64,000 nt of DNA from Bacillales bacterium (GCA_031554185.1 JAVBKE010000023.1:15597-79596); one strand, 5' to 3'. Shown: positions 42,042 to 64,000, numbered from the stretch's first letter. Numbers and translations: made by a program. The notes: a model not told the origin generated them from the letters alone.

Positions 42042-42045
42042 ATTT

Positions 42046-42120: not shown

Positions 42121-42123
42121 AAC

Positions 42124-42197
42124 GGGTTGATAGTTCAACGGTAGAATAACTGGCTCTTAACCAGTCCACGAAGGTTCGACACCTTCTCAGCCCACCA
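42124..42197 (+). tRNA. tRNA-Lys: tRNA-Lys (anticodon CTT)
   Basis: acceptor gggttga/tcagccc, anticodon stem actgg/ccagt loop ctcttaa, T arm gaagg-ttcgaca-ccttc, CCA. Confidence 0.75.
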
Positions 42198-42205
42198 AAA
42201 TATAT

Positions 42206-42280
42206 GCCTTCGTAGCATAGAAGTAAATGCACCTGCCTGAAGAGCAGGGGAATACAGTGCGATTCTGTACGTTGGCACCA
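42206..42280 (+). tRNA. tRNA-Phe: tRNA-Phe (anticodon GAA)
   Basis: acceptor gccttcg/cgttggc (two U.U mismatches at 4:69 and 5:68), perfect D stem gcat/atgc but D loop lacks GG, anticodon stem cctgc/gcagg loop ctgaaga, T arm tacag-tgcgatt-ctgta, CCA. Confidence 0.65.
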
Positions 42281-42284
42281 GTTT

Positions 42285-42358
42285 GGATCCTTGGCTTATC
42301 GGCTGAGCACTTGGCTTTTAACCAAGCGAGAGAGGTTCGACTCCTCTAGGATCCACCA
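42285..42358 (+). tRNA. tRNA-Lys: tRNA-Lys (anticodon TTT)
   Basis: perfect acceptor ggatcct/aggatcc, anticodon stem cttgg/ccaag loop cttttaa, T arm agagg-ttcgact-cctct, CCA. Confidence 0.8.
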
Positions 42359-42362
42359 TTAT

Positions 42363-42438
42363 GGCGTTGTGGGGGAGTGGTTTCACCCGTGTGCCTGCAA
42401 AGCACAAGACGTTGGTTCAAATCCAACCTGCGCTTCCA
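42363..42438 (+). tRNA. tRNA-Cys: tRNA-Cys (anticodon GCA)
   Basis: anticodon stem tgtgc/gcaca loop ctgcaaa, T arm gttgg-ttcaaat-ccaac, U73 discriminator (Cys identity), CCA. Confidence 0.75.
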
Positions 42439-42475
42439 TATTCACATTAAAGATTATTTGTTGTAGAATATTTCT

Positions 42476-42790
42476 ATGGAGAAAATTAGAGATTCTACCG
42501 GATGTCCTCCGGATATTTGCGGGACAGATGAATGTTTTGTTTTTAGAACAACTGGTGAATGCTTTGAAGATATTCATCATGAATTTCACCCTAGGAGAGA
42601 ATACAAAACAGGACTCGAAAGAAAGTTTCGAGAAATACCAGAGTTTAAAACTATTTTGTGCAGAGCTTCACATCAATTGATTCATGCAATGATCGATAAA
42701 AGAATTGAACCTTTGCCAGAAAAACCAGATCGCGTATTCATGTTAAACGCACTGCAAGAAGCACGACGATCAACAATGGTCAATAATTAA
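42476..42790 (+). CDS. HNH endonuclease
   Basis: CPPDICGTDEC...HHEFHPRREY...LCRASHQLIH HNH/Zn motifs; flanks tRNA array. Confidence 0.55.
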   Translation: MEKIRDSTGCPPDICGTDECFVFRTTGECFEDIHHEFHPRREYKTGLERKFREIPEFKTILCRASHQLIHAMIDKRIEPLPEKPDRVFMLNALQEARRSTMVNN

Positions 42791-42810
42791 TATACTTTCA
42801 CTAGACACTA

Positions 42811-42819
42811 TGGTATAAT
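42811..42819 (+). promoter_or_regulatory. extended -10 promoter TGGTATAAT
   Basis: TGnTATAAT upstream of SLT gene. Confidence 0.35.
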
Positions 42820-42985
42820 TGATCAGTCCAATTTTGAAAAGATAGTTTCTAATATTAGATAAATTATCCTATTATTCTGAGGACAAATATGAGTAGAAAT
42901 AAACGAACAATACAAGTTCCGCAAACGAAATTCATCACGACTAATTTTAGTCGTGTTTTTATTTGTGAACAAAAAAGGAGCGAAA

Positions 42986-43717
42986 ATGCTTAAATTAAAA
43001 CAATCTTTAAAAGGCTTTAAACAAAAGCTCAGACGTAAACACACACCAATGACGAAAGAAAAATTATCAAAACGTCTTAAAGTTTTGAAATGGATAATTT
43101 TGTTTTTGGTTCTTTCTGTTTTAGTGGCAATTGTATTTAACATAATACAAAGTGGAGAAATCAATAAGAGACAAAGAGAGATTGAAAATCGACAAATCCA
43201 AATTGAGCAAATCGACACAAAGTTAAATGACTCCAGGAAAAAACTTGACGATCAAGAAATCACTGTTCAAGAATATCAAAAAGAAGTCGATAAGTTAAAC
43301 AAAGAAAAAGAAGACCTGAATTCACAACTACAAGCAAAAGTTGAACGGCAGAAGCAAGAACAAATTGCATACGCCGAATCACAAAAGAAAGTTTCAGTTC
43401 AACAAACAGTCTCTCAACCAGTTCAATCTTCACCTCAAGTTTCAGGATCAAAAGCGGATTGGTTAGCTGCTTCAGGAATTCCTCAAAGTGAATGGGGGTA
43501 TGTTGATAGCATTGTTACAAAAGAAAGTGGATGGAATCCAAATGCAGTTAATTCTAGTTCTGGGGCATGTGGTCTAGGTCAACAACTTCCATGCGGAAAG
43601 TGGGCAGGAGCTTGGAATGATCCAGTCGCTGCTTTAGTTGCGATGAATGGATATGTTCAAAAATATGGTGGTTGGGCAGGAGCTGTGTCATTCTGGCAAA
43701 CTAATAGGTGGTATTAA
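42986..43717 (+). CDS. membrane-anchored lytic transglycosylase (SLT domain) with coiled-coil
   Basis: N-terminal TM helix, coiled coil, C-terminal ESGWNPNAVNSSSGACGLGQ (SLT ES...GLxQ motif); ATG 42986 after AAGGAG (track start 42953). Confidence 0.6.
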   Translation: MLKLKQSLKGFKQKLRRKHTPMTKEKLSKRLKVLKWIILFLVLSVLVAIVFNIIQSGEINKRQREIENRQIQIEQIDTKLNDSRKKLDDQEITVQEYQKEVDKLNKEKEDLNSQLQAKVERQKQEQIAYAESQKKVSVQQTVSQPVQSSPQVSGSKADWLAASGIPQSEWGYVDSIVTKESGWNPNAVNSSSGACGLGQQLPCGKWAGAWNDPVAALVAMNGYVQKYGGWAGAVSFWQTNRWY

Positions 43718-43725
43718 GGAGTCAT

Positions 43726-43821
43726 ATGAAAATTTCTAAAACAATGTTTCCAAAAAGATTTAAAAAAGCAGAACTTCCAAAAGAAGGCATTAAAGTTAGT
43801 ATGTACTTCGAAGAATCATAA
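43726..43821 (+). CDS. small basic peptide (31 aa)
   Basis: AAGGAG RBS 5 nt upstream of ATG, terminator hairpin immediately downstream. Confidence 0.35.
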   Translation: MKISKTMFPKRFKKAELPKEGIKVSMYFEES

Positions 43822-43840
43822 TTAACTACAAACAAATTTG

Positions 43841-43866
43841 AGCATCGAAAGGTGCTCTTTTTAATT
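43841..43866 (+). terminator. rho-independent terminator
   Basis: gagca-tcgaaagg-tgctc hairpin plus TTTTT. Confidence 0.45.
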
Positions 43867-43868
43867 AA

Positions 43869-43882
43869 AAAGTATTTACTTA
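43869..43882. promoter_or_regulatory. operator-like palindrome AAAGTATTTACTTA followed by ttagcatagataatatataat promoter
   Basis: inverted-repeat motif; same architecture as the site at 48823. Confidence 0.4.
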
Positions 43883-44025
43883 TTAGCATAGATAATATAT
43901 AATGCTTATATCAATCTAATATAGGATTGAAGAACATTTACCACTACTTAGATAGATTAAGGCGAAACAAATTTCAATTCGTGAGAGAAATTGAAGTGTG
44001 AGGGTAGGTCTTAATCTATCATCTT

Positions 44026-44100
44026 GCTTGCGTAGCTCAGAGGCAGAGCGCTTCCCTGTCACGGAAGAGGTCGAGATTTCAAAATTCTTCGTAGGCGCCA
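44026..44100 (+). tRNA. tRNA-Asp-like (anticodon GTC), diverged second copy outside main array
   Basis: acceptor gcttgcg/cgtaggc, perfect D stem gctc/gagc, anticodon arm identical to the array tRNA-Asp (cttcc-ctgtcac-ggaag), weak T arm gaga-ttcaaaa-tctt, G73, CCA. Confidence 0.45.
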
Positions 44101-44829: not shown

Positions 44830-47800
44830 ATGAGTGAATTAAAGTCTAGCGATTTTGTATATCTCCACAATCACACAGAAATGGGCTCACTTTTAGATGG
44901 ATTGTCTAAAATTGATGAAATGGTTGAAAAGGTCAAAGAATATGGAATGGTTGCATGTGGTATTACTGATCACGGAAGAATGGCAGGAGCGCTAGATTTT
45001 TACAAGAAATGCAAGCAAAATGGAATAAATCCAGTCATTGGATGTGAATTCTATGTTGCAAAAAGAAAACACACTGACAAAGAACCAGAAGATAAACCAA
45101 GGTCCCACTTAACTGTTCTATGTATTTCAAATCAAGGTTGGAAAAACCTTTGTGAATTAAATTATAGGGCAGGAAAAGATGGATTTTACTATAAGCCAAG
45201 GATTGACAAAGAGTTATTGCTTAAGTGCAAAGAGGGTTTAGTTGTTCTTTCTGGTTGTGCAAGTGGAGAAATCGGTGAAGCATTAAAAATCGACGATTAC
45301 AACACAGCAAGAGAAATAGCTTTATGGTATAAAGAAAACTTTGGAGAAAATTTTTATTTAGAGATTCAGATGCATGGTCACAAAGATTTCCATAAACACT
45401 GGGACGTTCAAGGAAAAATTAATGATGGGCTTGACAGGTTGTCAAAGGAGTTGGACATTCCCCAAGTGTTGACAGCTGACTCTCACTATGTCAATAAAGA
45501 CGATACATATAATCATGAAATTCTTCTTTGTATTGGTACAGCTTCGAATTATGACAACCCAAACAGAATGAGTTTGCAGAATTTTGACTTGAGTTTAACT
45601 GATCCTCAAGTTGTCATTGACTTATTCGGAAAAACTCATCCAGAAGCGATAAGAAATACAAAAAGAATAGCAGACCAAAACACTCTTGAAATTGAAATGG
45701 ATAAAACTTATGTTCCAACATTTTTGTGTCCTGATGGATTGTCAGAAAAAGATTACCTGAGAAGACTTACATGGAAAGGTTTGACAAAGAGATACTTGAA
45801 CACAGAGGTAGAAACTGAGGAAGAAGCTAAAAAAATCTTAAGTAAAGAGATTATAGATCAAACTGAGTATGAATTGTCGACAGTGAATAAACTCGGATAT
45901 AACGGATATTTCTTAATCACTCAAGAATTCATCGTTTGGGGAAAAGATAGAGGAATTTTGTTTGGACCAGGACGAGGATCAGCTGCTGGAAGTATCGTTT
46001 GCTATGCACTAAGAATCACAGAGATCGATCCAATTGAAGCAGACCTAATGTTCGAAAGGTTTTTGAATCCCGATAGACTTTCTATGCCAGACATAGACAC
46101 AGATATTCAAGACTCAAGAAGAGATGAAGTTTTAGATCATTGTAAAGATTTATATGGTAATGAGAACGTTACGTGCATCGGTGTCTTTGGAACACTTCGA
46201 GCGAAAAATGCAGTAAGAGATGTTGCAAGAGTTTTGGAGTACCCGTATACTGAGAGTTTAAAGCTTTCTAAAATGATCTCAGATGCTCAGCATAATGGGG
46301 GAAACTATCTTCCAAATGAAATTAAAGAAAATGAAGACTTTAAAAAAGAGTATGAAGGAAGTTCTGAAGTAAGAAAAATTGTAGATACAGCAATAAAACT
46401 TGAAGGAAATCATAGAACTCATGGTGTTCATGCTTGCGCAGTTGTTATTAGTCCAAAACCGATTTATGAATATATGCCTTGTGAAGCAGCTCAAAACGGA
46501 GAAATGGCAACTCAGTTTGCAATGCATGATGTCGAAGAACTAGGACTTTTGAAGATGGACTTTTTAGGACTTTCAACCTTGACAGTTATTGATAACACAG
46601 TGAAAATGATTAAAAAAACAAGAGGAGTTGATGTTGATATTCACAATATTCCTTTAGATGATTATGAAACTTATAAGTTATATCGAGAAAAACGAAGCAA
46701 CAATACATTTACGTTCAACTCTCCAGGAATGAGAGCAACATTGGCGGGTTTAGAGGCGGACAATTTCGAAGATCTTGTTGCAACGAATGCGCTATACAGG
46801 CCTGGTCCTATGCAATATATAGGAAGTTATATCAAAAGAAAAAAGGGAACAGAGAAAATTAAGTATCTTCTAAAAGGAAGTGAAAAATTTCTTTCTAAAA
46901 CTTATGGGTACATAGTTTACCAAGAACAATGGATGCGCATTTGTGAGTTTTACGGTTTTCGTGGTGGAGAGCTCGACAACGCAAGGAAAGCAATTGCAAA
47001 GAAAAATGTTGCTTTGATGGAAGTTGTTAAAGAAAAGTTTTATGCTGGTGCAATGGAACACGGAAACAGTAAACAAACGATTGATACTTTTTGGAATGAA
47101 CTCCTAGATTTCGCAAATTACTCGTTTAATAGATCCCATGCATATGCATATGCCTTAGTTGGATATCAAACAGCTTATTTGAAAGCTCATTATCCAGCAG
47201 AGTATATGGCATCAATAATGATTAATGTCAAGGGTGACAAAGAGAAACTTGAAACAGCTATTTCAGATGCAAGGTCAGAAGGAGTAAAAGTTAATCCTCC
47301 AAATGTTGTTGAATCAGATATTGACTTTACTGTGAACTCAAAAGGAGAAATTGTTTTTGGTCTCTCTGCGATAAAAGGAATTGGAAAAAGTGCAGATATA
47401 ATTGTCGAAAAAGCAAATGGAAAAGACATAAAAACATTGGAAGAGTTCTTGTCGTTGTTTCCAGGATCTGAATTGAATAAGAGGTCCCTAGAAGGTCTTG
47501 CAAAGTCAGGAGCACTAGATAATTTCGGAGACAGGTATGCTCTAGTTTTTAGTTTAGGCGAGATAAGTGAGCAAAGAGCACTGATAAATAAAGAGTTTAA
47601 TAAAGTTAACAAAGATCAAACATCACTATTAGACGGAATAGAAGATTTTACAGTTACTAAGTTAAATATAATCAGGCCACCAAAAATAGACAGAGCAAAG
47701 ATGTTTCAAGATGAAAGAGAGTACATCGGAACATATGTTTCTGGCCACCCTTTAGATGATTATGAATCAAAGGTGAAAAATAAACCTGGAACAAATATTT

Positions 47801-48069
47801 GGACAGGTGTGATTGGTTTGATATCTTCAAAAAGAATAATTACTACTAGGTATGGAGATAAGATGTGTTTCTTGGTGATTGATTCAAAGAAGGAGGAATT
47901 TGAAGTTACAGTTCCTCCAAAGGTATATAAAATTAAGTCACACGAATTAAAAGAAAATCATCCACTATTGATGTCTCTAGAAAGAAAAGAAACAGAATCA
48001 GGACAGGTAAAGTGGTCAATGGTTGATTCACGAGATTTATTGGCCACTGATGCATTATTGAATAAATAA
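44830..48069 (+). CDS. dnaE: DNA polymerase III alpha subunit (DnaE-type, PHP N-terminus)
   Basis: N-terminal PHP motif FVYLHNHTEMGSLLDG, 1079 aa, polymerase-core and OB-like regions. Confidence 0.85.
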   Translation: MSELKSSDFVYLHNHTEMGSLLDGLSKIDEMVEKVKEYGMVACGITDHGRMAGALDFYKKCKQNGINPVIGCEFYVAKRKHTDKEPEDKPRSHLTVLCISNQGWKNLCELNYRAGKDGFYYKPRIDKELLLKCKEGLVVLSGCASGEIGEALKIDDYNTAREIALWYKENFGENFYLEIQMHGHKDFHKHWDVQGKINDGLDRLSKELDIPQVLTADSHYVNKDDTYNHEILLCIGTASNYDNPNRMSLQNFDLSLTDPQVVIDLFGKTHPEAIRNTKRIADQNTLEIEMDKTYVPTFLCPDGLSEKDYLRRLTWKGLTKRYLNTEVETEEEAKKILSKEIIDQTEYELSTVNKLGYNGYFLITQEFIVWGKDRGILFGPGRGSAAGSIVCYALRITEIDPIEADLMFERFLNPDRLSMPDIDTDIQDSRRDEVLDHCKDLYGNENVTCIGVFGTLRAKNAVRDVARVLEYPYTESLKLSKMISDAQHNGGNYLPNEIKENEDFKKEYEGSSEVRKIVDTAIKLEGNHRTHGVHACAVVISPKPIYEYMPCEAAQNGEMATQFAMHDVEELGLLKMDFLGLSTLTVIDNTVKMIKKTRGVDVDIHNIPLDDYETYKLYREKRSNNTFTFNSPGMRATLAGLEADNFEDLVATNALYRPGPMQYIGSYIKRKKGTEKIKYLLKGSEKFLSKTYGYIVYQEQWMRICEFYGFRGGELDNARKAIAKKNVALMEVVKEKFYAGAMEHGNSKQTIDTFWNELLDFANYSFNRSHAYAYALVGYQTAYLKAHYPAEYMASIMINVKGDKEKLETAISDARSEGVKVNPPNVVESDIDFTVNSKGEIVFGLSAIKGIGKSADIIVEKANGKDIKTLEEFLSLFPGSELNKRSLEGLAKSGALDNFGDRYALVFSLGEISEQRALINKEFNKVNKDQTSLLDGIEDFTVTKLNIIRPPKIDRAKMFQDEREYIGTYVSGHPLDDYESKVKNKPGTNIWTGVIGLISSKRIITTRYGDKMCFLVIDSKKEEFEVTVPPKVYKIKSHELKENHPLLMSLERKETESGQVKWSMVDSRDLLATDALLNK

Positions 48070-50558: not shown

Positions 50559-50831
50559 ATGTCAAAAAGAAATGCTTACCCAATTTCAATGCTACTAAAG
50601 CTAAAGGCTCTCAATCCAAGTCAGAACTTTGAAGGCGAAGATAAAAGAGTTTATGAAGAGTGGCTTGAAAAAGAAGCTGAAAATTCTTTACTAAACGAGC
50701 TCGATAAAGTCGAAAAGAAGCCAAAGATGAAAAAAGTAAAACAAGTTGTTGAACCGACTGATACTCAATCGATGGACGTGGTGGTTCCTGAAGATGTCTC
50801 CGAAGACAAAACAGACAAGACAGAAGTTTAA
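50559..50831 (+). CDS. hypothetical acidic protein
   Basis: AAGGAG RBS; 90 aa. Confidence 0.45.
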   Translation: MSKRNAYPISMLLKLKALNPSQNFEGEDKRVYEEWLEKEAENSLLNELDKVEKKPKMKKVKQVVEPTDTQSMDVVVPEDVSEDKTDKTEV

Positions 50832-51153
50832 TTCTCTTAAAAAAACAAATCGGTATAAAAATTTCCGAAAAAGACAATATGTCTATCAGCTAGGTAGGTG
50901 CTGTTATTGCAAAAGGTTGTTGAAAAATGTTCCATGGCATTTCGAACACATACGACCAGTCTCTCAAGGTGGAGTTAGGGTAAATAATTACGCAAATCTT
51001 GCTCTTTCGTGTCCTTCTTGCAACATCAAAAAAGGAGCTATGAGAGGAGTTCAATATCCTCAATGGATACTAGACAGGAAACAAATGTTTGAAAAAGTTT
51101 CTGCAAAAGAGATTCACAAACTTTACTATACTCTTAGAGAAATGGGAAGATGA
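50794..51153 (+). CDS. HNH endonuclease
   Basis: CCYCKRLL...WHFEHIRPVSQGG...NLALSCPSCNIKKG HNH motif; start set to first ATG in frame (track 50746). Confidence 0.5.
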   Translation: MSPKTKQTRQKFNSLKKTNRYKNFRKRQYVYQLGRCCYCKRLLKNVPWHFEHIRPVSQGGVRVNNYANLALSCPSCNIKKGAMRGVQYPQWILDRKQMFEKVSAKEIHKLYYTLREMGR

Positions 51154-51179: not shown

Positions 51180-51404
51180 ATGAAATTAAAGAATATTTGT
51201 TGTCCAGGAGAAATCGTCAAACCTAATAACAGGGTTATTTCTTGCAATGCGTTGCTTTTAAAAGTTGGGCCATGTGAAAGAGGAGAAATAGTTTGCAGAA
51301 GGTGTAAGAAAAAGATTATTTTTTCTGTTAGCGAAAACCTTATTGGTGAAACTGTAGTCAAAATTAGATTGATCATTGACGAAGATGACGACCTAAGACT
51401 ATGA
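51180..51404 (+). CDS. Zn-ribbon small protein (CxxC x2)
   Basis: CCPGE...C..., CRRC motifs; AGGAGG RBS. Confidence 0.45.
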   Translation: MKLKNICCPGEIVKPNNRVISCNALLLKVGPCERGEIVCRRCKKKIIFSVSENLIGETVVKIRLIIDEDDDLRL

Positions 51405-51431: not shown

Positions 51432-52142
51432 ATGGATATAGATATTTACCAGACGTTGACTGGAATTACAATTAAGGAATCTCAAATTCCTCAGTTCGAA
51501 GCATCAATGAATCGAGCTATGATTTTAGTTCAAAACGCATTAGGGTATATGTTCAACTATACTCCGACATTTTCTGAAAAAGGAGTTAGTCCCCGAGAAT
51601 GTGATTGTCCAACTGATGATTCTTCTCTTTTACCACCAGAAATAATTTCTGGAGAAGTTAAGTTATTCAGATACGACGTTAGTGATGTTCAAATAAGAAT
51701 TGATCCAGCTTCGGCAATTTATGCAGCAAAATTAATTGTTCCTGACAAAGGTGATAGCGAAAGATTCGTTTCTGTTAAAAAAATAGAAAAATGGATTCCA
51801 AAATACAACGAACAAGGTTGGACAACTTACATAGAAAAGTGTGAAGGTTGGCCTTTTTCGTTATGTGGATGTGATTGCAAAAACTGTGTTTTATTAGCTG
51901 TTTGGGGAGACTGGATAGATGTTATTCCTGTCGATCTTCAATATCTGATTTGCGACATGATTACATTCTTTATGAATAACAATCCCTTAGAAAGAGGAAT
52001 AAAATCTGAATCAGTCGACGGTCACTCTGTAAGTTACGACAATTCTCCGACAAATCCTATTGACTCTCCAATGTATTCATCTTTGATAAAAAAATATATG
52101 GGTCCTTATTCTCCATACTATAAAAAAGTAATGATTGTTTAA
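51432..52142 (+). CDS. hypothetical Cys-rich protein (possible head-tail connector/adaptor)
   Basis: 236 aa, directly upstream of fibre-like gene family; position-based. Confidence 0.4.
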   Translation: MDIDIYQTLTGITIKESQIPQFEASMNRAMILVQNALGYMFNYTPTFSEKGVSPRECDCPTDDSSLLPPEIISGEVKLFRYDVSDVQIRIDPASAIYAAKLIVPDKGDSERFVSVKKIEKWIPKYNEQGWTTYIEKCEGWPFSLCGCDCKNCVLLAVWGDWIDVIPVDLQYLICDMITFFMNNNPLERGIKSESVDGHSVSYDNSPTNPIDSPMYSSLIKKYMGPYSPYYKKVMIV

Positions 52143-52644: not shown

Positions 52645-53718
52645 ATGGATTATCCGATCGAAAAATTAAAAGATTATAAATTTCCAGCTAGAACTGAAGG
52701 AGTCAAGATCCAGACTCAATCTGAAGGAAAATCCGGTTTTCCGTCAAGGGTCAACAATCAATTAATTGGAACTTCTGATTTAGTTTCAGGAGTTGTTGTC
52801 ACAGACGAACTTCCTGTAGAGGGGCAAGAAGGAGTCTTGTATTATAACTCTGTTGATGGAACTTTGTGGGTTTGGGACGATGGATCATATCACCCAATTG
52901 GTGGTTCTACTGATTCGAAGTTTAGGGGAATCTATGAAACTCCTGCAGAATTAAGTTCTATTGAAGACCCGCTTGAAGGTGACTACGCAACTGTTGTTGA
53001 AACTCAAACAACTTGGTCGTATGACGGAACAACATGGATAGATACTGAAATTTCAGTATTAAGTGTTCAATCAGTCAATGGTAAAACAGGTGTCGTTGTA
53101 TTAGACAAAACTGATATTGGACTTGAAAATGTTGACAACACCTCTGACTTAAACAAGCCAGTTTCAACTGCGACTCAAAGTTCTATTGATCAACTTGATT
53201 CAGAGGTTACCACAGAAATAGGAACTTTGAACGATAGAGTTAACGATGCGTGGAATGCTATCGGAAATATTGACTATGTCGACAACGTTCCAGAGTTGAA
53301 AAAACATAAGATTGGTGAATTTCATGATTACACTCAATCACCAAAAGATGTCAATGAAACTATAACTCCATTGGTTGACAACGGAGATGGAACTTATACA
53401 TACACTGATCAAACAGGGGTTTCAACAACCTTTTCTGCAAATGCCTCGACACCTCCTGAAGTTTCTGTCGAACAAACAACTTATGATGAGATGGGAAACG
53501 GAGTTGCAACAACATTTGCCACTTTAGTTCCAGGTCTAACGACTTCCCCTCAAAATTATATTTTAAATATTTATAAAAATGGTCTATTACAACGTCAAGG
53601 TTCAGGAAAAGATTGTGAAACGACAATCACAAATGGTAGTGTAGAAGTTACATTTCCAGCTGCACCGAAAACAAATGATAATATTGTAATAGAGGCAAAC
53701 GTAACCAAAATAATCTAA
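52645..53718 (+). CDS. fibre-like structural protein (shares modules with the 53732 and 57607 proteins)
   Basis: 357 aa; VDNGDGTYTYTDQTGVSTTF module; C-terminal NYILNIYKNGLLQRQGSGKD domain similar to the C-terminus of the next ORF. Confidence 0.5.
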   Translation: MDYPIEKLKDYKFPARTEGVKIQTQSEGKSGFPSRVNNQLIGTSDLVSGVVVTDELPVEGQEGVLYYNSVDGTLWVWDDGSYHPIGGSTDSKFRGIYETPAELSSIEDPLEGDYATVVETQTTWSYDGTTWIDTEISVLSVQSVNGKTGVVVLDKTDIGLENVDNTSDLNKPVSTATQSSIDQLDSEVTTEIGTLNDRVNDAWNAIGNIDYVDNVPELKKHKIGEFHDYTQSPKDVNETITPLVDNGDGTYTYTDQTGVSTTFSANASTPPEVSVEQTTYDEMGNGVATTFATLVPGLTTSPQNYILNIYKNGLLQRQGSGKDCETTITNGSVEVTFPAAPKTNDNIVIEANVTKII

Positions 53719-53731
53719 AGGAGATTTATAA

Positions 53732-54784
53732 ATGGCACGAACACAAATTAGAGTACAAACCGACATCCGACCAGGTGCAGAAGATCAAGTTCTTCAGGTC
53801 AAAGATGGAATTTTGGACTACGTAAATGTAACAGAAATCACAGACGGTTTTGTTACAGATGCAGAACTGGCAACTGAGTCTACAGCTCGTCAATCTGGAG
53901 ACACAACTCTTCAAACAAACATCGATGCTGTCGTAACGAATCTTGCATCAGAAACTTCTGCTAGAACAGCAGCTGACACAGCTCTGTCAACTCAAGTTGG
54001 TGATGTAGAAGATTCAGTTACTGCCGAGGTCACAGCTCGAACAAGTGCTGACACAGCATTAGGCGCACGGATTGATGGTGTTGTAACAAGCGTTTCGACA
54101 GAAGTTACAGATCGAACAACAGCTGACACTGCTCTGCAAACTCAAATTGATGCTCTTGAATCAAAGGCAAATGTTAGAGGTTCAGTTGATACATTCGCAG
54201 AACTTGAAGCACTTTCAACTACTGATCTAGTAGATGGTGACTCATACATCGTTCTAGCAGACGAAACTCACGACGATGGAACAACAGAGTATGTTTGGAA
54301 TGGAACTGCTTGGGTCTATGCTGGTTCATTCTCAGTTAACTTAGCAGATTACGCCACAGTTACAGCTCTTACGACAGAAACCTCAGCTAGAACTTCTGCT
54401 GATTCAGCTTTGGACACCCGAGTTACAGCTATCGAAGATGCTGATTACATCACAGATGCTCCAGCTGATGGAAAATCATATGTTCGAGTTGATAATGCAT
54501 GGGCACAAAACTCAGCAGTTGGTTCGCTAGTCATCACTGACACAAGCACAACAGCTATCGCAAATGGAACTCAGACAGCTTTCGTTGCAACAGCAACAGG
54601 TTTGACTCCAACTCCAGCAAATTATACCGCACGTGTTTATCGAAACGGTATCTTGATGGAAAAAGGTTCTGGCAACGATTACTTGGAAACAGTCGCAACA
54701 GGAAGCTACACAGCAACATTTGCTACAGCTCCAATGGCTGACGATAAAGTTGTCATCACTCTTACAACATTCGACTTAGTTTAA
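53732..54784 (+). CDS. fibre-like structural protein, paralog family member (conserved N-terminus)
   Basis: N-term MARTQIRVQTDIRPGAEDQVLQV; Thr/Ala-rich repeats; C-terminal domain shared with previous ORF. Confidence 0.5.
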   Translation: MARTQIRVQTDIRPGAEDQVLQVKDGILDYVNVTEITDGFVTDAELATESTARQSGDTTLQTNIDAVVTNLASETSARTAADTALSTQVGDVEDSVTAEVTARTSADTALGARIDGVVTSVSTEVTDRTTADTALQTQIDALESKANVRGSVDTFAELEALSTTDLVDGDSYIVLADETHDDGTTEYVWNGTAWVYAGSFSVNLADYATVTALTTETSARTSADSALDTRVTAIEDADYITDAPADGKSYVRVDNAWAQNSAVGSLVITDTSTTAIANGTQTAFVATATGLTPTPANYTARVYRNGILMEKGSGNDYLETVATGSYTATFATAPMADDKVVITLTTFDLV

Positions 54785-54859
54785 TTTAAACTTGGAAATG
54801 GAGAGGGAATAAAATCCCTCTCCTAGAATGTAAAGTAAAAACGAAAAAGAAAGATTAAA

Positions 54860-55276
54860 ATGGCAGCAACATCTATCAATGTGAATGATATTAAACCGTC
54901 GTCATCTGATGGTGATGTTGTAACTGTAGTCAACGGAAAGCCGACTTGGAGACCTCAGGTTTCTGGGAAAACTTCTACTTCAGTTTTGAACATTTCATCA
55001 AAAACAACTGATGTGATCTTGACAGCTTCAGGAAATCTTTCAGTTGCAGCTCCAACATTTTCTTCTCTATACTATGGAGATAAAAATGGAGCTGTTATTC
55101 GTTTTAGAATTAAGTCATCTGGCGTTTCTAGAGCAATTTCTTGGAATTCGATTTATCGACCAATAGGATTTCCTCTTCCTTTGTCAACAGTTTCAGATAA
55201 ATTGTTATATGTTGGAGCGATTTATAATTCAACTGACGATCGATGGGATGTCTTAGCTGTGAATCAGGAGTCATAA
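54860..55276 (+). CDS. paralog family member (conserved N-terminal anchor motif)
   Basis: N-term MAATSINVNDIKPSSSDGDVVTVVNGKPTW. Confidence 0.5.
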   Translation: MAATSINVNDIKPSSSDGDVVTVVNGKPTWRPQVSGKTSTSVLNISSKTTDVILTASGNLSVAAPTFSSLYYGDKNGAVIRFRIKSSGVSRAISWNSIYRPIGFPLPLSTVSDKLLYVGAIYNSTDDRWDVLAVNQES

Positions 55277-55974
55277 TGCCACCTTCAACTGGGATGACAG
55301 CATGGTGGAGGGCAGATTCGATTTCTCAAGAGGACGGAACTATAGTTTCTTTTTTGCCAGATATTTCTGGAAACAATAATAACTTGATTCCAGTAGGAGC
55401 TGCAACAGGGGCAATTTATTATAACAATATAATTAACGGATATCCCGCTCTTAGATTCAATGGAACGTCTGTGAATACAATGGGATCTCAGACTTTAAAT
55501 GCTTCAGATCTTAATTTTACGATGGTCGCAATAATGTCTCCACAAGATCTTTCTACGAATCATAACATCGTTGACTCAAGCGCAAACGGAGGAAGAAGTG
55601 TCAGAACAGGAACTGTTTCTTACCAAATGGTTGTTAGGGGACTTCAAGCAGGTCCAGTTGCTACAGCGACGACTCTAGTTATAGGAAAACCAGTAGCTAT
55701 ATTTGTTGGTTGTGATTCTTTAACAGTTAATTATTGGACGAATAATGCAGTCGCTGGTGGAGGGAACATAAATGTTTCTTCAACTCCTGGTACATACCAA
55801 ATAGTCGGAGGAGGAACAAGTGTAATGAATGCTTATTTGACAGAAATGATGTTTTATGATCACAAAATCACTTCTTCTGAGAAAGAACAAATAGCTTCTT
55901 ATATACAAAATAAATATTCAATTAACATGGGAATAACAAACAACTTCCAAGGGAACTTTGCTCAACTACTTTAA
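55276..55974 (+). CDS. hypothetical structural protein
   Basis: ATG 55276 after AGGAG (track start 55243). Confidence 0.45.
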   Translation: MPPSTGMTAWWRADSISQEDGTIVSFLPDISGNNNNLIPVGAATGAIYYNNIINGYPALRFNGTSVNTMGSQTLNASDLNFTMVAIMSPQDLSTNHNIVDSSANGGRSVRTGTVSYQMVVRGLQAGPVATATTLVIGKPVAIFVGCDSLTVNYWTNNAVAGGGNINVSSTPGTYQIVGGGTSVMNAYLTEMMFYDHKITSSEKEQIASYIQNKYSINMGITNNFQGNFAQLL

Positions 55975-55989
55975 AACAGGTACAAAATT

Positions 55990-56478
55990 ATGGCAATAAC
56001 AAAAATAAACACACAAGACTTAAAACCATCAACAGTAGACGGAGAATTCTTAGGAACTGTTGGAGATAAAGTTTTGTGGCAAACATTGTCTAATTCTGTT
56101 CCGGCTTTAAACTTCGGTGAAACAAATGAAAAATGGACAGGAAGAAGAGACTATACAGTAGAGTCTAGAATCGATCCAATTACTGGTCAACAAGAATATC
56201 CAAAAATCTATCATAGGTGGTTTAGTTGGGGATTTTTGCCTTCTGCTCAAGCGATAACTAAACCTCACGGAGTTCCTTCGATAAGTACGATGGTGACAGT
56301 TGATGGAGTCGCAAGAATTCCAGGTTCGTTCACAATTAGTCTTCCATTCGGTGCACCTGGAACGACATTGCCAATCTCGATAACAGCTGACTCAACAAAT
56401 ATTATTTTGACAACAGGAAACAATAGAACAACTTATGTTGGATGGATTCGACTTGAATATACATGCACAGATAGATAA
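55990..56478 (+). CDS. paralog family member (conserved N-terminal anchor motif)
   Basis: N-term MAITKINTQDLKPSTVDGEFLGTVGDKVLW. Confidence 0.5.
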   Translation: MAITKINTQDLKPSTVDGEFLGTVGDKVLWQTLSNSVPALNFGETNEKWTGRRDYTVESRIDPITGQQEYPKIYHRWFSWGFLPSAQAITKPHGVPSISTMVTVDGVARIPGSFTISLPFGAPGTTLPISITADSTNIILTTGNNRTTYVGWIRLEYTCTDR

Positions 56479-56506
56479 AATGGTATTATACAGATAGGAA
56501 CACACC

Positions 56507-57598
56507 ATGGCAAAGACTCAATTAAACCCAATCGATATCAAAGAATCATCAACAAATGGAGATGTTTTAAAAACTGTAGATGGGAAAACCCAATGGTCTT
56601 CAAACTCTGGTGGTACAATCCCTACTCTAGAACAAGTCCTTGATTCAGGAAACATTGGAGGATCTCTTCAGTCAATTGATTTTGCCGACGGAGAGTCTGG
56701 TTCGAGTTTTAATTATTCTGGTTTTTCGATAAACAATCCTGACGCTGGGTATTCAGCAATAAGTCCAGGAACAGGATATTTTTCAGATATTTTTGGAAAC
56801 TTTCTTCAACTTGAAGCATCTGAGATCTCAGGAAGATTGATAACAGTAACCACAGCAGATAGAATTCAAATTCCGAATTTAGTTTCTGGAGTCAAAGAGG
56901 TAAATGGGACTGACTTAGGGAGATATTATGAAATCGAGCCAGGAACTCAGACTAAGGTAACAGTTGCTATTGTTGGATATACTCAAATTGGTCTAATGAC
57001 AGCAGCAAATAATCCAGAAAAAATATTCTATCCTGGGATGATAACTACAGTTGTTTTATCTTCTGATAGTGGAAATAGGATGGTGGTATGGGGAAACGTA
57101 GAATCATTCGCAGCAACTCCTCCTGCAGCAGGAATCAATGGAAAGATCCAACATGTTGAATTTAAATACGATGCATCAAGAGATATTTGGATGTGTATGT
57201 CTGTCACTGTTCAGGGAAGACAATATATGTCGCCTCCTCGACAAACATCAGCAGGATTTACATTTAATAATTCATGGAAAAACTTCTCAGCTGACAGACC
57301 TTGCAAATATTTAGTAGAAGGAAATACAGTTCACTTAATAGGGCTTGCTTCTAAGGGGTCAGCATGGGCAGCGAACGAAGTGATCGCGACTCTTCCTAGC
57401 CAGTATTGGCCAAGAGCTGATTATTATAGCACAGGTGGTTTGATATTTCAAACAGCTGCATCGGGAACAGTTTCATCTGGCACAATGATGATTAACCCAG
57501 CAAATGGACAAATCTCAGCAAGAATCGCAGGATCTACTGATCAATGGATTTCGATGTACGGTGTATCATTCTTAATTAATGAACTGCAATTATCATAG
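56507..57598 (+). CDS. paralog family member, fibre-like
   Basis: N-term MAKTQLNPIDIKESSTNGDVLKTVDGKTQW; IPTLEQVLDSGN module shared with 57607. Confidence 0.5.
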   Translation: MAKTQLNPIDIKESSTNGDVLKTVDGKTQWSSNSGGTIPTLEQVLDSGNIGGSLQSIDFADGESGSSFNYSGFSINNPDAGYSAISPGTGYFSDIFGNFLQLEASEISGRLITVTTADRIQIPNLVSGVKEVNGTDLGRYYEIEPGTQTKVTVAIVGYTQIGLMTAANNPEKIFYPGMITTVVLSSDSGNRMVVWGNVESFAATPPAAGINGKIQHVEFKYDASRDIWMCMSVTVQGRQYMSPPRQTSAGFTFNNSWKNFSADRPCKYLVEGNTVHLIGLASKGSAWAANEVIATLPSQYWPRADYYSTGGLIFQTAASGTVSSGTMMINPANGQISARIAGSTDQWISMYGVSFLINELQLS

Positions 57599-57606
57599 GA
57601 GAAATT

Positions 57607-58884
57607 ATGACAAAAACACAAGTAAATCCCAATGACATCAAACCTTCAGAAACTGAAAACTCAGTTATCCAAACGATAAGTGGAAAAGCAGTTTGGTCAA
57701 ATTCTCCAATCCCTCCTGTAGTTCAAACTACTGGAACATCTGTTACAAATGTAATGTCTCAAAATGCAGTTACGTCTAAGATCAATGCTATTCAGGCGTC
57801 GATACTTGATGTTACATACACAGATTCAGTTGCTCCTGCAAATGCTCACAGAATTGGTTATTTCCAAGATGGAGGATCTGTGGAGAGGGCTGTCAACGAA
57901 ACTGTTACTCGAATGGTTGATAACGGAAACAAGACCTATACCTACACAAATGAAGCTGGTACATCGACAGTGATCAATGCTGCTGGCCCTACAGTTGTAC
58001 AATTTCCAGGATCATCGACGACGTCAGTGATGTCTCAGAAAGCTTTCACAGACAGTTTAGACCTGATGTTCAACCAGATAGAAACTATCACATATACAAG
58101 TACTTCTGGTACTCACAAAATTGGTTCTCTTCATGAAGGAAACGGTGAAACAGTCGACATAAAAGAATCTGTGTCGCCTTTGGTTGATAACGGTGATGGA
58201 ACATACACTTACACAGATGAATCTGGGATTTCAACTACGTTTTCTACTGGAGGAAGTTCGTCAATTCCAACTCTAGAACAAGTTTTAAACTCTGGTGATA
58301 AAGGTACAGATCTTCAAAAAATCATGATGGGTGACGAAGCAACTGGGTACACTTCGACATTTGATTATTCAGGACTAGCAGTAACATCTGACGGAAATAA
58401 TTTTACAAATGTTGGACCAACGTTAGTTCAAGTTGACAATGGGTCAGGAGACAATGCATCGTTAACAGCATTAGGTTTGAGTGGAACAGACACAGCAAAA
58501 GAAGCAACAAATTTATGGTTAGGAAATGTTTCTCAAGAATCAGGAAGAGTAGAAGGAGCAATTCAACACTCACTAAATATTGTCGATGAATTCGAAAACT
58601 CTGCCAGAAGATCGGGAGCAACAGTTAACTTAAAGTTCAATGTATCTGTTTTAGGAGATGCAGCAATTCCACCAGGATCTATCATTGGCTCTGTCGACGA
58701 ACAGTTTGCTTCAGATACAGAGATCTTTATCTATGCAAGGTCTGAGCCTGGAGATACTTCAAACAGTAGGGTCATAAGATTCTCAGAAGGAATTTTGTAT
58801 TTGGTGAATGGTCAACAAGCCGGAGAAAGCTTTGGGATATGCTTTGACACAATATATATGACTAACTATTGGGCGACAGCTTAA
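57607..58884 (+). CDS. paralog family member, fibre-like (largest)
   Basis: N-term MTKTQVNPNDIKPSETENSVIQTISGKAVW; two DNG(N/D)xTYTYT modules; IPTLEQVLNSGD module. Confidence 0.5.
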   Translation: MTKTQVNPNDIKPSETENSVIQTISGKAVWSNSPIPPVVQTTGTSVTNVMSQNAVTSKINAIQASILDVTYTDSVAPANAHRIGYFQDGGSVERAVNETVTRMVDNGNKTYTYTNEAGTSTVINAAGPTVVQFPGSSTTSVMSQKAFTDSLDLMFNQIETITYTSTSGTHKIGSLHEGNGETVDIKESVSPLVDNGDGTYTYTDESGISTTFSTGGSSSIPTLEQVLNSGDKGTDLQKIMMGDEATGYTSTFDYSGLAVTSDGNNFTNVGPTLVQVDNGSGDNASLTALGLSGTDTAKEATNLWLGNVSQESGRVEGAIQHSLNIVDEFENSARRSGATVNLKFNVSVLGDAAIPPGSIIGSVDEQFASDTEIFIYARSEPGDTSNSRVIRFSEGILYLVNGQQAGESFGICFDTIYMTNYWATA

Positions 58885-60023: not shown

Positions 60024-60329
60024 ATGCATCAACCAATAGACTTATTCACAATCATCTTGCACGCTTGTTTAGCTTTAATGGGTGCTTTAGTGAGGGAAAT
60101 TAGAGACTGGGAAAAGGATCGATCGATTCCTGGTTTTATTGGAGGAGCACTATGTGGGGCATTTCTCGGAGTTTTGGCTTATTTGATCTGCAATTCAATC
60201 GGAATGGACGGGTCAATGACAGCTGCTATTGCTGGAATTTTTGGTTATGGTTCGTATCCGATGTTGGATGCATTAGAAAAAAGAGTTCGTCACGCAGTCA
60301 AAAACAAAGACATTTCAAAAAAGAAATAG
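60024..60329 (+). CDS. holin-like small membrane protein
   Basis: 101 aa, 2-3 predicted TM helices, charged C-terminus ending KDISKKK. Confidence 0.4.
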   Translation: MHQPIDLFTIILHACLALMGALVREIRDWEKDRSIPGFIGGALCGAFLGVLAYLICNSIGMDGSMTAAIAGIFGYGSYPMLDALEKRVRHAVKNKDISKKK

Positions 60330-60884: not shown

Positions 60885-63800
60885 ATGAATCCTTTTGCAA
60901 AAATCTTCAACATAAACAGAAACAAAGAAAAAACAATAGAAAACGATCGAAGGTTGTCAAACGATTACTTGCGAAATGGAAATGCGAAAGCCAAGAGAAC
61001 GATAATCATCGATGAAGAAGACAACAAGGAAACTTCATACTCTGGTTGGTTATACGCAGCGCTGAATGTTCGAGCAGATAACTTTGCTTCTTTTTGTGAA
61101 GAATCTGTCATGCCAGCATTTGACGTAGAAGATGAGAATGTTACAGTAAATCACCCTTATATCAAAATGATCGAGAATTCTCAACGATATGAAGAATACG
61201 ATTTTTGGCACGACATCTTAGCCGATTACGATATTTTTGGTGAATACTTTATTTTCATTTTGCGAAGAGTTGTGTATGAAAAAGATCCAAAAACTGGCAA
61301 ACAAGTATTGACTTATTGCGGGGAGCCTCAATCAATCGAAGTTTTAGATGCTGGAAACATGACTGTTTTGAAGAATGGTTATGGAGAAGTTGTTGGCTAC
61401 AAAGAGCAAGTAGATAGCACTCATTACAGGGAATTCTCAGTAGACCAAATTATTCACAGGATAAATAAGAATCCGATGAACAAGGAATTACCTTATTCTA
61501 TTTTTGATGCTGCTAGAGATTATCAATATACGATTAACAAAGGCAGCGACTATGCAAAAGCTGCTTTAATCAATAACATCAATACCCCTGCAATTATTAG
61601 TTCCCAGCAAGAACTTTCTCCAGATGAATACGATAACTTGGTTGCAAGAATTTCTCAACATGAAGCTGGAAAACCTATTGTTGCTAATGGTGCTGGTGCG
61701 ATTGATTACAAAGAAACAAATCAAAGTTTAGACAAAGCTTCTCTTCCTTCTTTAAATGAAATTAATCGACAAACAATTTATGCCATTACAGGAACTTCAA
61801 AAACTATTCTTGGTATCGAAGAATCAGGAACGACAAGAGAGACAGCTCGAGTCCAAGACAAGAAGTTTACACAAAAAACTATTCTTCCATTGGCAAAACG
61901 AGTTGTTGGCTCACTAAACCTTGATTTTAGAATTCACTATCCTGAAGCTGTAAAAAAATATAATTTAAAACTTGACATTAAAGATCTCACAGATCCTGAA
62001 GATGTTCAAGAAAAACTTACTACTCAAAAACTTTTATTCGACGATATTACAGAAATCGTTTATTCAGGTTACACAGCTCAATCAGCTGAAGATTTCATGT
62101 ATGGTGATATTTCATATACAGCTCTGGTACCTGATGAAGACTCTTCTCAAGATGAAACAGAAGAAGATGTTCCTGGAGGAATTAATTCACCTGAAGAAGA
62201 AGAAGAAGAAGAACCAGTTGACGAAACTCCAAAGGAAACAATGGATGGCGCAGTCGACTTAAAAGAGTCTGATAAACTATTAGTTCCAGAGAACTTTGTT
62301 CGGAATTATGTTCATGACAAAAATTACGTAAGCGACCTTATCATAGAAGAAAACGCAACCCCAAAAGGAAACCCTCACCATGATAAAGTTGGAAAGTTTA
62401 CTTATGGTCCTTATGGAGAATACACAGGTTTGGAAAAAACGACAAAGCTTTGCCAAACAATGAACAAACTTCTTGAGAAACAATATAAGAAGAGAGAAAA
62501 GATGGCGTCGATGGCGTCTGATGAGGAATTTTATAATCAATGGCAAGATCTTAAAGAGAAGTCAGGAGAAGTAATCAAGAATTACATCGAAGCAAATGGT
62601 GGTGATTACAACAAGTTGATGACGATGGAAAGTGATTGGGTAGGAAATGACTACAAGACAATTGAAGATCACATTAAAAACAAAGACTCAAAAGAATTAG
62701 AGTTGATGAATGCTCTTCAGCAAGCATATTTTCACGAAGCAGGAATTAAGGAGATTACCCTTGAAAGAGGTGTCTATGGGGATCAAGCAAAAAAACTAAA
62801 AGAAGCACAAAAAAGCGGGAAATCGATAGATCTTGGACCTGACTACGCAACTTCATTTACAGGAGATCATTATGCTGCAGTTGATTACGCTGATGGTGCT
62901 TCATTTACTGCTCCAGATGACATATCAGACTCTGTAGTTATTAAGAAAACAATTCCAGTAGATCAAATAGTCTATTCTACAGAGGTCCTTAGAGGAAAAG
63001 CTGGATCGTTAAAAGATGAATTTATCGTGACTATGCCAAAGGGAATGAAGATCGATCCAAGTGATATCGAAGTGATTAATTCGCTGGAAGATGTTGTCAC
63101 AAATAATATTGAAGATGAACACGATTTTAGCCCAAAGATCACCGAAGAGCATCAAGGTTGGGTAGGAGCTAAGGTAACGCCTATTGAGGTTTCTGACAGG
63201 CTAAGTGATGAATTGAAAATTCAGCTTGCAGATGAAAGTTTAATGGATGCCGAACAAGAGGCAACGAACAGTCCAGGACAAGAAAATCCTCACTTCACTG
63301 TTGTTTATGGTTTGAAAGAGGAAGCTTATAAAAATGATATTAAAAAACTTTTTAAAGATTTAGTTCCAAAAGAAGTAGAGATCGAATCAATTGAAAAATT
63401 CGACCTAGACAATGACGACTCTGATGTAATCGTCGCTAAGGTAAAAAAGACCCCAGAGCTAGAAGCTATGAATAAAGCTTTCTTGGAGCTACCTCATTAC
63501 GACCAGAAATTTCCAGATTACACTCCGCATGTTTCTTTGGTTTATGTCAAAAAAGATGCAGACGACAAAGAAATCATTGACTCATTTCAAGATTTAGTTG
63601 GTAAGAAACTTAAAGTTGCTGGAGCTGACTATGGTAAGAATTCTCCAATGACAACAAATCAAAAAGAAATCGATTTTGAGAATCATACTCACGATGGTGG
63701 TGAATTTACAATAGATGATCATATTAACTCTGTGTTTTCTAAGCGGCTTAATGATCTTGGTGAATTAGATGACTATTCTAAGACACAACAAGCTCAACTT

Positions 63801-64000
63801 ATAAAAGCAAAAGAAACACTTTTAAAAGGAATTCGTAAGGTGCAGTTGTTAGCAATTCAAAAAGCAAACAACAAAGTCGCTAAGAACGCTATTGAACGAT
63901 CTGATGTTATTTCTGAGGATGATGAAAACAGTTTAATTGAAAATCTTTATAATTTATTCAGACAATATTGGTTTTTGGCTTTGCCAGTTATTGGTAAAAA
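60885..64000 (+). CDS. large virion protein, portal-like N-terminal region fused to a long C-terminal extension containing a 2H-phosphoesterase-like domain (3' end outside window)
   Basis: own translation: ATG 60885, no stop to window end (>1038 aa; absent from ORF track because unterminated); poly-Glu linker near aa 445; C-terminal HFTVVYGL (63289) and HVSLVYV (63528) H-x-T/S-x motifs about 80 aa apart. Confidence 0.5.
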   Translation, partial: MNPFAKIFNINRNKEKTIENDRRLSNDYLRNGNAKAKRTIIIDEEDNKETSYSGWLYAALNVRADNFASFCEESVMPAFDVEDENVTVNHPYIKMIENSQRYEEYDFWHDILADYDIFGEYFIFILRRVVYEKDPKTGKQVLTYCGEPQSIEVLDAGNMTVLKNGYGEVVGYKEQVDSTHYREFSVDQIIHRINKNPMNKELPYSIFDAARDYQYTINKGSDYAKAALINNINTPAIISSQQELSPDEYDNLVARISQHEAGKPIVANGAGAIDYKETNQSLDKASLPSLNEINRQTIYAITGTSKTILGIEESGTTRETARVQDKKFTQKTILPLAKRVVGSLNLDFRIHYPEAVKKYNLKLDIKDLTDPEDVQEKLTTQKLLFDDITEIVYSGYTAQSAEDFMYGDISYTALVPDEDSSQDETEEDVPGGINSPEEEEEEEPVDETPKETMDGAVDLKESDKLLVPENFVRNYVHDKNYVSDLIIEENATPKGNPHHDKVGKFTYGPYGEYTGLEKTTKLCQTMNKLLEKQYKKREKMASMASDEEFYNQWQDLKEKSGEVIKNYIEANGGDYNKLMTMESDWVGNDYKTIEDHIKNKDSKELELMNALQQAYFHEAGIKEITLERGVYGDQAKKLKEAQKSGKSIDLGPDYATSFTGDHYAAVDYADGASFTAPDDISDSVVIKKTIPVDQIVYSTEVLRGKAGSLKDEFIVTMPKGMKIDPSDIEVINSLEDVVTNNIEDEHDFSPKITEEHQGWVGAKVTPIEVSDRLSDELKIQLADESLMDAEQEATNSPGQENPHFTVVYGLKEEAYKNDIKKLFKDLVPKEVEIESIEKFDLDNDDSDVIVAKVKKTPELEAMNKAFLELPHYDQKFPDYTPHVSLVYVKKDADDKEIIDSFQDLVGKKLKVAGADYGKNSPMTTNQKEIDFENHTHDGGEFTIDDHINSVFSKRLNDLGELDDYSKTQQAQLIKAKETLLKGIRKVQLLAIQKANNKVAKNAIERSDVISEDDENSLIENLYNLFRQYWFLALPVIGK

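Follow-up and report, generated by a model that had tools for sequence, protein, structure and literature searches.

A conserved N-terminal motif on five putative fibre proteins of a low-GC tailed phage and its possible role as a docking plug

Why would five neighbouring genes of a tailed phage, whose products otherwise differ, begin with the same segment of about 30 residues? This question is raised by a cluster of fibre-like genes at positions 52645–58884 (+ strand) in a 64,000-nucleotide stretch of DNA filed under Bacillales bacterium (GCA_031554185.1, JAVBKE010000023.1:15597-79596), which is referred to here as the window. The window is part of a low-GC (guanine plus cytosine, ~35%) tailed-phage genome of the siphovirus, i.e., long-tailed, type. 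A preliminary description of this DNA had proposed that five of the open reading frames (ORFs) share an N-terminal motif while their bodies are exchanged like modules, and all five ORFs are indeed present on the + strand. The genes of the cluster, named below by their first nucleotide, are as follows (aa, amino acids; nt, nucleotides).

52645–53718, + strand: first fibre gene, 357 aa, without the N-terminal motif
53732–54784, + strand: fibritin-like fibre, 350 aa
54860–55276, + strand: small fibre protein, 138 aa, motif at nt 54860–54949 followed by a C-terminal domain of ~100 aa
55276–55974, + strand: 232-aa protein without the motif, matching phrog_10356 'virion structural protein' (E 1.3e-5)
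55990–56478, + strand: small fibre protein, 162 aa, motif at nt 55990–56079 followed by a unique C-terminal domain
56507–57598, + strand: fibre protein, 363 aa, motif at nt 56507–56596, IPTLEQVL module from residues 38–48 onward, and a C-terminal domain
57607–58884, + strand: fibre protein, 425 aa, motif at nt 57607–57696, C-terminal half unique

The shared N-terminus inside and outside the window

ORFs 53732, 54860, 55990, 56507 and 57607 start with a segment of ~30 aa of the form MAxTxINxxDIKPSxxDGxVxxTVxGKxxW, which is lacking in ORF 52645 and in the ORF listed from 55243 (55276 in the list above). In an all-against-all BLASTP comparison of 18 window proteins, the matches of the four clear members were confined to the N-terminus, from residue 1 to residues 31–52, with E values of 4e-9 (54860 versus 57607), 5e-7 (54860 versus 56507), 8e-6 (54860 versus 55990), 1e-4 (55990 versus 56507) and 5e-4 (55990 versus 57607). 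As a non-circular test, a hidden Markov model (HMM) was built from 21 outside sequences only and run on all 977 six-frame segments of the window. It matched the first residues of 56507 (E 2.8e-11), 57607 (2e-9), 54860 (3.4e-9) and 55990 (2.2e-8); 53732 followed with E 0.12, and no other segment fell below E 2. The weak score of 53732 is due to a one-residue insertion and to divergence in the second half of the motif. Aligned with the outside protein P0066, its N-terminus is identical at 14 of 26 positions, both sequences being matched from residue 1 (pairwise E 3e-6). The proposed common N-terminus thus holds on proper alignment, by BLASTP and the outside-only HMM for four ORFs and by the P0066 alignment for the fifth.

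AlphaFold2 monomer models of two paralogues, 54860 and 55990, reached a mean predicted local distance difference test (pLDDT) score of 49–50, and only the motif region was confident. Residues 1–30 scored 71–82 in 54860, with a beta-hairpin formed by 20–24/27–31, and 74–84 in 55990, with a hairpin formed by 19–24/27–32; the rest of both models was of low confidence. The motif is therefore predicted to fold as a short turn followed by a beta-hairpin.

The motif had no match in Pfam, NCBIfam or the PDB (including the FtbO and FtbP chains), and its N-terminal form matched no PHROG family. Searching GenBank phages with the consensus by tblastn returned chance-level matches only. The N-terminal alignment retrieved no sequence in a word-indexed homology search, and its conservation was too loose for scanning by pattern. 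Neither IMG/VR nor the JGI metagenomes contained a match to degenerate DNA patterns of the motif. A looser DNA pattern gave 22 matches, about the number estimated for chance, 20 of which lacked the motif beyond the pattern itself; among the matches, L016 and L024 read MATTKINASQIRPS and then run into an early stop. A literature search on the motif string returned nothing relevant.

Relatives were found by an exhaustive profile search over 1.84 billion cluster representatives (threshold E<=1e-3), which returned 130 representatives, 125 of them from outside the window and five the window's own. Three placements of the motif were seen: it opens varied fibre- or tailspike-like proteins at their extreme N-terminus, it comes straight behind a signal-peptide-like segment, or a truncated version of it is repeated internally in tandem. 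The first two placements together make up an N-terminal class of 19 outside matches that cover at least profile positions 6–30. P0066, P0073, P0126 and P0143 carry the motif at Met1 (MARTKINPKQIKPGADNQVLKTVGGKAVW), and leader-type members carry it straight after the signal-peptide-like segment (...SAQ-TINPNQIRPSATNGQVLTTVGG.T.W). In either case T-x-I-N-P lies at, or no more than two residues from, the N-terminus, be it Met1 or the end predicted if the leader is cleaved, which favours a role for a free N-terminus. The bodies behind the motif in this class are unrelated to one another and include a GDSL esterase, T4 Gp10_C and tailspike-like beta-helices; the body of the L001 protein reads to us as a pectate-lyase-like beta-helix.

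The internal matches begin mostly at profile position 9 or later, are usually arranged in tandem and correspond to positions ~11–34 of the motif. Up to 24 copies occur in one 3138-aa protein, and a Cellulophaga chromosomal protein also carries them. The repeat period is ~28 aa in P0030, with longer units of ~75–130 aa in P0033 and P0037. Two multi-copy proteins, P0043 and P0122, extend as far upstream as the N-terminal class does (profile position 6), at internal sites. P0057, another internal-repeat protein, matches PHROG tail-fibre families over the repeat. Among the other domains of outside proteins, Gp10_C occurs in P0126 and P0016, and P0037 matches Pfam DUF5907, a family without any match in the window proteins scanned or in nine other motif proteins scanned.

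Two high-GC phage contigs (L001, 9980–12727; L006, 8220–10088) show the leader arrangement, in which fibre- or tailspike-like genes start with a signal-peptide-like hydrophobic segment right before the motif. One protein family occurs in both contigs; its L006 member (9294) has the leader, which its L001 member (6917) lacks.

Runs of motif genes are also found elsewhere. Adjacent motif-bearing genes occur in four other contigs, two each in L002, L003 and L004 and three in L005. In the short contigs with P0066, P0126 and P0143, it is the next gene that starts with a variant of the motif (MANTKINTLKQLRKAPNNGVVLATEG..LVWKNVS). The 8.5-kb contig L005 reads terminase, portal, a 96-aa gene, a 247-aa coiled-coil gene without the motif and then three consecutive motif genes. 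It has no other protein in common with the window by BLASTP, so the organisation, i.e., a motif-less first gene followed by a run of motif genes near the portal, recurs in an otherwise unrelated phage. The L005 terminase large subunit (120–2759, 879 aa) appears to hold an intein or homing-endonuclease-like insertion, and its portal gene is interrupted by a stretch of unknown bases.

The exchanged bodies of the fibre proteins

The body of the motif-less first protein, 52645, combines a GDxxxV...WxxxGxxW element (residues 111–131), the sequence SVNGKTGxVxL (143–153), an HKIG...VDNGDGTYTYTD module (221–261) and a C-terminal domain of ~80 aa that is shared with 53732. Its residues 126–193 gave many PHROG matches annotated as minor tail protein or tail fiber (best E 2e-15; tail-category family down to 8e-14), and tblastn aligned residues 24–201 with actinophage minor tail proteins, those of Gordonia and Clavibacter phages included. 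In Gordonia phage Vendetta, the sole actinophage inspected, the matching gene lies in the tail module. In addition, residues 139–193 are similar to the stalk of FtbO, a side-fibre protein of monocin (9j1l, E 0.01). The 52645 protein is a candidate primary fibre or adaptor.

The 53732 protein is built differently. Its divergent motif (residues 1–30) is followed by coiled-coil repeats of 25 aa, which are seen in the DNA as 75-nt repeats, then by a foldon-like element (residues 239–257, nt 54446–54502) and finally by the ~80-aa domain. Residues 203–259 match Pfam Fibritin_C with 24.4 bits (cutoff 21), a segmented coiled coil preceding the foldon, and the comparison with T4 fibritin (1aa0) gave E 3.4e-5, with YITDAPADGKSYVRVDNAW included in the aligned part.

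The next two genes are probably translationally coupled, because the stop codon of 54860, which encodes the 138-aa motif protein, overlaps the start codon of the gene for the 232-aa protein (TAATG, 55274–55278); the latter ORF, listed from 55243, most likely starts at this ATG at 55276. The C-terminal domain of 54860 matches phrog_3030 (E 6e-15) and occurs in the metagenomic protein P0029, whose N-terminal region is unlike that of 54860 and looks fibre-like to us. The 55276 product, which by eye resembles LamG or lectin-like proteins, had no Pfam match and no tblastn match in GenBank phages.

For 55990, no family match was obtained in PHROG, Pfam or NCBIfam apart from that of the outside-only motif HMM. 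Residues 166–358 of 56507 showed weak PHROG matches (E 4e-4 to 1e-3), two to minor tail protein families (3639 and 3285) and two to families of unknown function (9468 and 13022); PDB sequence searches of 56507, 51432 and 8056 returned nothing useful. The 57607 protein matches phrog_35342 'tail fiber protein' (E 6e-8) and contains an internal tandem duplication of ~90 aa (residues 38–121 and 130–210; window positions 57718–58236), the unit of which reads VVQxxGxSxTxVMSQxAxT ... H(K/R)IG ... VDNGxxTYTYT, i.e., a VMSQ-type and a DNGDGTYTYT-type repeat per copy. Its homologues share these repeats only: the DNGDGTYTYTD repeat occurs in Flavobacteriia proteins and the VMSQKAVT repeat in others, one of which ends with T4 Gp10_C.

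BLASTP and inspection of the sequences bear out the reshuffled modules that the preliminary description had listed. The VDNGDGTYTYTD element is found at residues 244–261 of 52645 and at 104–121 (degenerate) and 193–210 of 57607, and IPTLEQVLxSG at 38–48 of 56507 and 220–230 of 57607. Residues 9–109 of 56507 and 183–293 of 57607 are 34% identical over ~100 aa (BLASTP, E 3e-11), and 52645 and 53732 share 39% identity over 75 aa of their C-terminal domains. The VVQxxGxSxTxVMSQxAxT repeat, the SVNGKTGxVxL motif, the foldon and the 25-aa coiled-coil repeats of 53732 can be added to that list. The DNA identity of about 75% that had been ascribed to the matching segments is correct for short stretches (46–90 nt, 72–81%), but not beyond them. 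Overall, the picture of fibre-like proteins evolving by module exchange is supported, the N-terminus being a discrete module attached to differing bodies both here and in unrelated phages. Switching by DNA inversion of the Mu G-segment type was considered and ruled out, the genes being all co-oriented and long inverted repeats being absent.

A docking plug and its alternatives

By analogy with the docking peptide of KP32 RBP2, the balance leans slightly towards the explanation that the products of the cluster are trimeric fibres of the virion and that five of them would dock through a shared N-terminal beta-hairpin plug. The module would consist of ~10 residues at a free N-terminus (MAxTxINxxD) followed by the hairpin (IKPSxxDGxVxxTVxGKxxW), and would attach every fibre to docking sites of a single type on the particle. 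Fibres that differ in their distal domains could then be shown together or compete for the same sites, and different structures on the host surface would be recognised by these domains. Candidate docking partners are the motif-less 52645 protein, the Dit/Tal-associated proteins (4496–9665) and the neck, i.e., the adaptor-like 51432 protein or the portal. That the fibres form trimers, dock, are built into virions and help to set host range is what we infer from the known systems compared below.

Where such fibres would sit depends in part on the genes that flank the cluster.

51432–52142, + strand: 236-aa protein with weak head-tail adaptor similarity at residues 161–222 (phrog_132, 442 and 541, all 'head-tail adaptor', E 5e-4 to 9e-3)
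60024–60329, + strand: holin (phrog_785, E 3e-13), between the fibre cluster and the portal gene
60885–64000, + strand, continuing beyond the window end: portal protein gene (Pfam Phage_portal, residues 60–382, E 1e-22)

The downstream portal of the preliminary description is confirmed by this Pfam match, whereas the upstream head-tail connector is reduced to weak head-tail adaptor similarity in PHROG; searches of Pfam and the PDB with the 51432 protein gave no match. Attachment at the distal tail is somewhat more likely than at the neck, because the bodies show tail-type homologies, and attachment to the capsid is the least likely. The neck stays plausible because the adaptor-like gene and the portal flank the cluster and because one member is fibritin-like. 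The cluster proteins matched no named family of head decoration proteins or head fibres in Pfam, PHROG and NCBIfam, and matches of the head category were limited to three families with the generic label 'virion structural protein', of which two hit the SVNGKTG motif of 52645. Together with the tail-type modules, these results speak for fibres of the tail or neck rather than for decoration of the capsid, which the preliminary description had also considered.

A related reading takes the proteins as neck or collar fibres (whiskers) or head fibres that would be attached by their N-terminus to the adaptor/portal region or to the capsid and would serve in environmental sensing, reversible adsorption or particle stabilisation. 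It agrees with the position of the cluster between the head-tail-adaptor-like gene and the portal, with the L005 motif genes, which likewise come after the portal, and with the fibritin-like, foldon-containing 53732; T4 fibritin forms neck whiskers, and the foldon is a trimerisation element. However, foldon-like elements also occur outside neck fibres, the bodies resemble minor-tail and tail-fibre rather than head-decoration families, and gene position is weak evidence in a genome in which the terminase (11734–13125, minus strand) is displaced as well. We therefore regard this reading as unlikely. Also unlikely, to a comparable degree, is that the motif is a generic unit of trimeric beta-fibres, i.e., a cap or first shaft repeat that nucleates folding and has no specific docking function, with attachment achieved by other means or with only some of the fibres present in the virion. 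The hairpin part does recur as an internal tandem repeat in many large metagenomic proteins, in the Cellulophaga chromosomal protein and in P0057, and no docking partner was found among the window proteins. Yet the first ~10 residues (MAxTxIN) are a conserved feature of the N-terminal class that most internal repeats lack, and the segment is kept across five otherwise unrelated bodies and in adjacent genes elsewhere, as a shared interaction site predicts. A much more remote alternative is that the N-terminus is a remnant of tandem duplication whose bodies were later replaced, without a common function now, or acts in the DNA as a linker at which cassettes are exchanged by recombination. In favour of this, the genes are neighbours in one orientation, and modules have clearly been exchanged. 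However, identity within the N-terminal coding stretch (74% over 47 nt at best) is too low for efficient homologous recombination now, and the same peptide is found on unrelated proteins in unrelated phages. Conservation of the protein despite divergence of the DNA, as judged from these sequences, indicates purifying selection on the peptide.

Docking through a shared plug is supported by the motif at residue 1 of five adjacent ORFs, its N-terminal placement on unrelated bodies elsewhere, the recurrence of the arrangement in other contigs, the tail-fibre and minor-tail matches of the bodies (PHROG, tblastn), the predicted hairpin and the precedents of KP32 and monocin. Several observations weigh against it. 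Neither a T4gp10-like branching domain nor another known adaptor was found among 25 window proteins searched against PHROGs, 12 of them also against Pfam; the docking partners are candidates, and presence in the virion is argued by analogy. Motif positions ~11–34 are also internal tandem repeats in giant proteins, so that the hairpin is also a general fibre or shaft unit, whose conservation could reflect folding rather than docking. The leader preceding the motif in the high-GC phage contigs is odd for a virion protein assembled in the cytoplasm. The cluster lies ~41 kb from Dit/Tal, beside the adaptor-like gene and the portal and outside the tail module. Finally, the AlphaFold alignments comprised the five paralogues only.

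A wider proposal, which we put forward tentatively and consider doubtful, is that the plug is an uncatalogued, widely portable module, dependent on a free N-terminus and common to phages that are very distant from one another: the low-GC siphovirus described here, L005 and other uncultured phages, and phages of high GC content with a cleavable leader. Bacterial surface proteins may likewise use the module to mount trimeric fibres on a common socket. Phages in which several receptor-binding proteins share a docking element are natural templates for host-range engineering. If docking through the shared N-terminus is true, the peptide and its socket would form a new plug-and-socket pair onto which foreign binding domains could be mounted, and its recurrence beside the portal would raise the question of where on the particle the fibres sit. 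If the module is also portable, it would offer a general means of exchanging receptor-binding proteins between taxa.

Genome setting and comparison with known systems

The remaining genes that were assigned in the window are listed in order.

4–4494: tape measure protein
4496–5404: Dit
5407–7050: Tal-like protein
9719–11617: large amidase/lysin
11734–13125, minus strand: terminase large subunit
between the terminase and the tRNA array in window order: replication genes
39107–44100: tRNA array of 30 tRNA genes, with most amino acids represented
44830–48069: DnaE-type polymerase
50746–51153: HNH endonuclease-like ORF, assigned by eye from sequence motifs with no family search
51180–51404: small zinc-ribbon-like ORF of 74 aa with two CxxC pairs, assigned by eye

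The terminase gene directly follows the tail/lysin block at a distance from the portal, which is an unusual layout for packaging genes, and the HNH-like and zinc-ribbon-like ORFs lie just upstream of the adaptor-like gene. The portal protein has a C-terminal extension of more than 650 aa, in which a 2H-phosphoesterase domain is intact (PF13563, above cutoff with 36 bits) and both HxT/S motifs are present (NPHFTVVYGL and YTPHVSLVYV); the model of Acb1, which counteracts the cyclic oligonucleotide-based antiphage signalling system (CBASS), scored under its cutoff on this extension. A portal-tethered phosphoesterase acting on cyclic nucleotides or RNA ends could be a packaged anti-defence enzyme.

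Shine-Dalgarno-like sequences precede about half of the genes, a hint to the host that conflicts with the Flavobacteriia-like repeat modules. Promoter and terminator scans did no better than on shuffled sequence. The 75 nt that separate 53732 from 54860 contain a perfect hairpin with a 9-bp stem (GGAGAGGGA-n6-TCCCTCTCC, 54803–54826), which has no T-run after it and may be a transcript boundary or a stability element. No close relatives were found among GenBank phages by megablast of 44–64 kb or by tblastn of 57607, 56507 and the 55276 ORF, and IMG/VR scans with 51432, the portal and the second gene of L004 gave no match. Six of the fibre proteins, i.e., all cluster ORFs but 55243/55276, are singleton clusters, all from a single NCBI contig of 94,592 bp, and an exact 60-mer did not occur in the GTDB species genomes.

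Individual members of the cluster resemble known proteins in part. Residues 24–201 of 52645 are homologous to actinophage minor tail proteins such as gp27 of Gordonia phage Vendetta (28–39% identity), the genes of which lie just downstream of the tape measure gene, unlike here, where the tape measure, Dit and Tal genes occupy 4–7050 and the cluster 52645–58884. The 53732 protein is like T4 fibritin (Wac) in its segmented coiled-coil repeats and foldon-like element. However, the similarity is limited to ~57 residues, the foldon is internal (ending at residue 257 of 350) and followed by the ~80-aa domain, and the N-terminus is the shared motif instead of the neck-binding domain of Wac.

At the level of the whole cluster, the branched tailspike complex of CBA120 (TSP1-4, Ackermannviridae) and the branched lateral fibres of the T5-like phage DT57C (LtfA/LtfB) offer a parallel in that receptor-binding genes lie side by side, assembly is through the N-terminus and bodies are exchanged horizontally. 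In these phages the N-terminal domains are larger and differ between members in a fixed hierarchy, whereas all five proteins here carry one short peptide of identical type. A closer parallel in tail type is monocin, an F-type tailocin of Listeria, in which FtbO and FtbP share an N-terminal latch of three beta-hairpins that inserts into the adaptor FtbN (PMC11830787). Monocin has a siphovirus-type tail, the SVNGKTGxVxL stalk motif is common to 52645 and FtbO, and a hairpin is predicted for the motif here. However, the motif has no sequence match to FtbO or FtbP, an FtbN-like adaptor was not identified in the window, and the genes lie outside the tail module.

The arrangement most like the present one is that of KP32, K11 and KP34, podophages of Klebsiella, in which RBP2 sits on a T4gp10-like branching domain of RBP1, the genes are clustered, and a conserved N-terminal peptide of ~29–30 aa precedes unrelated bodies. 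In KP32 RBP2, the first 29 residues are a docking peptide that is required for virion incorporation and can be transferred to foreign bodies, including an enzyme domain (PMC13352976). The likeness is one of arrangement, with no sequence similarity claimed. Those phages are podoviruses with two receptor-binding proteins, whereas the present case, known from sequence alone, comprises five motif genes in a siphovirus-type genome and lacks a T4gp10-like branching domain among the window proteins scanned. Thus, that several receptor-binding proteins may share a short N-terminal docking element is already known. What is new is the sequence family of the element, which is absent from the curated libraries and solved structures searched, its presence on five genes of a siphovirus-type genome without close relatives found, its recurrence beside the portal in the unrelated phage L005, and the fact that it occurs in three settings, namely N-terminal, behind a leader and repeated internally.

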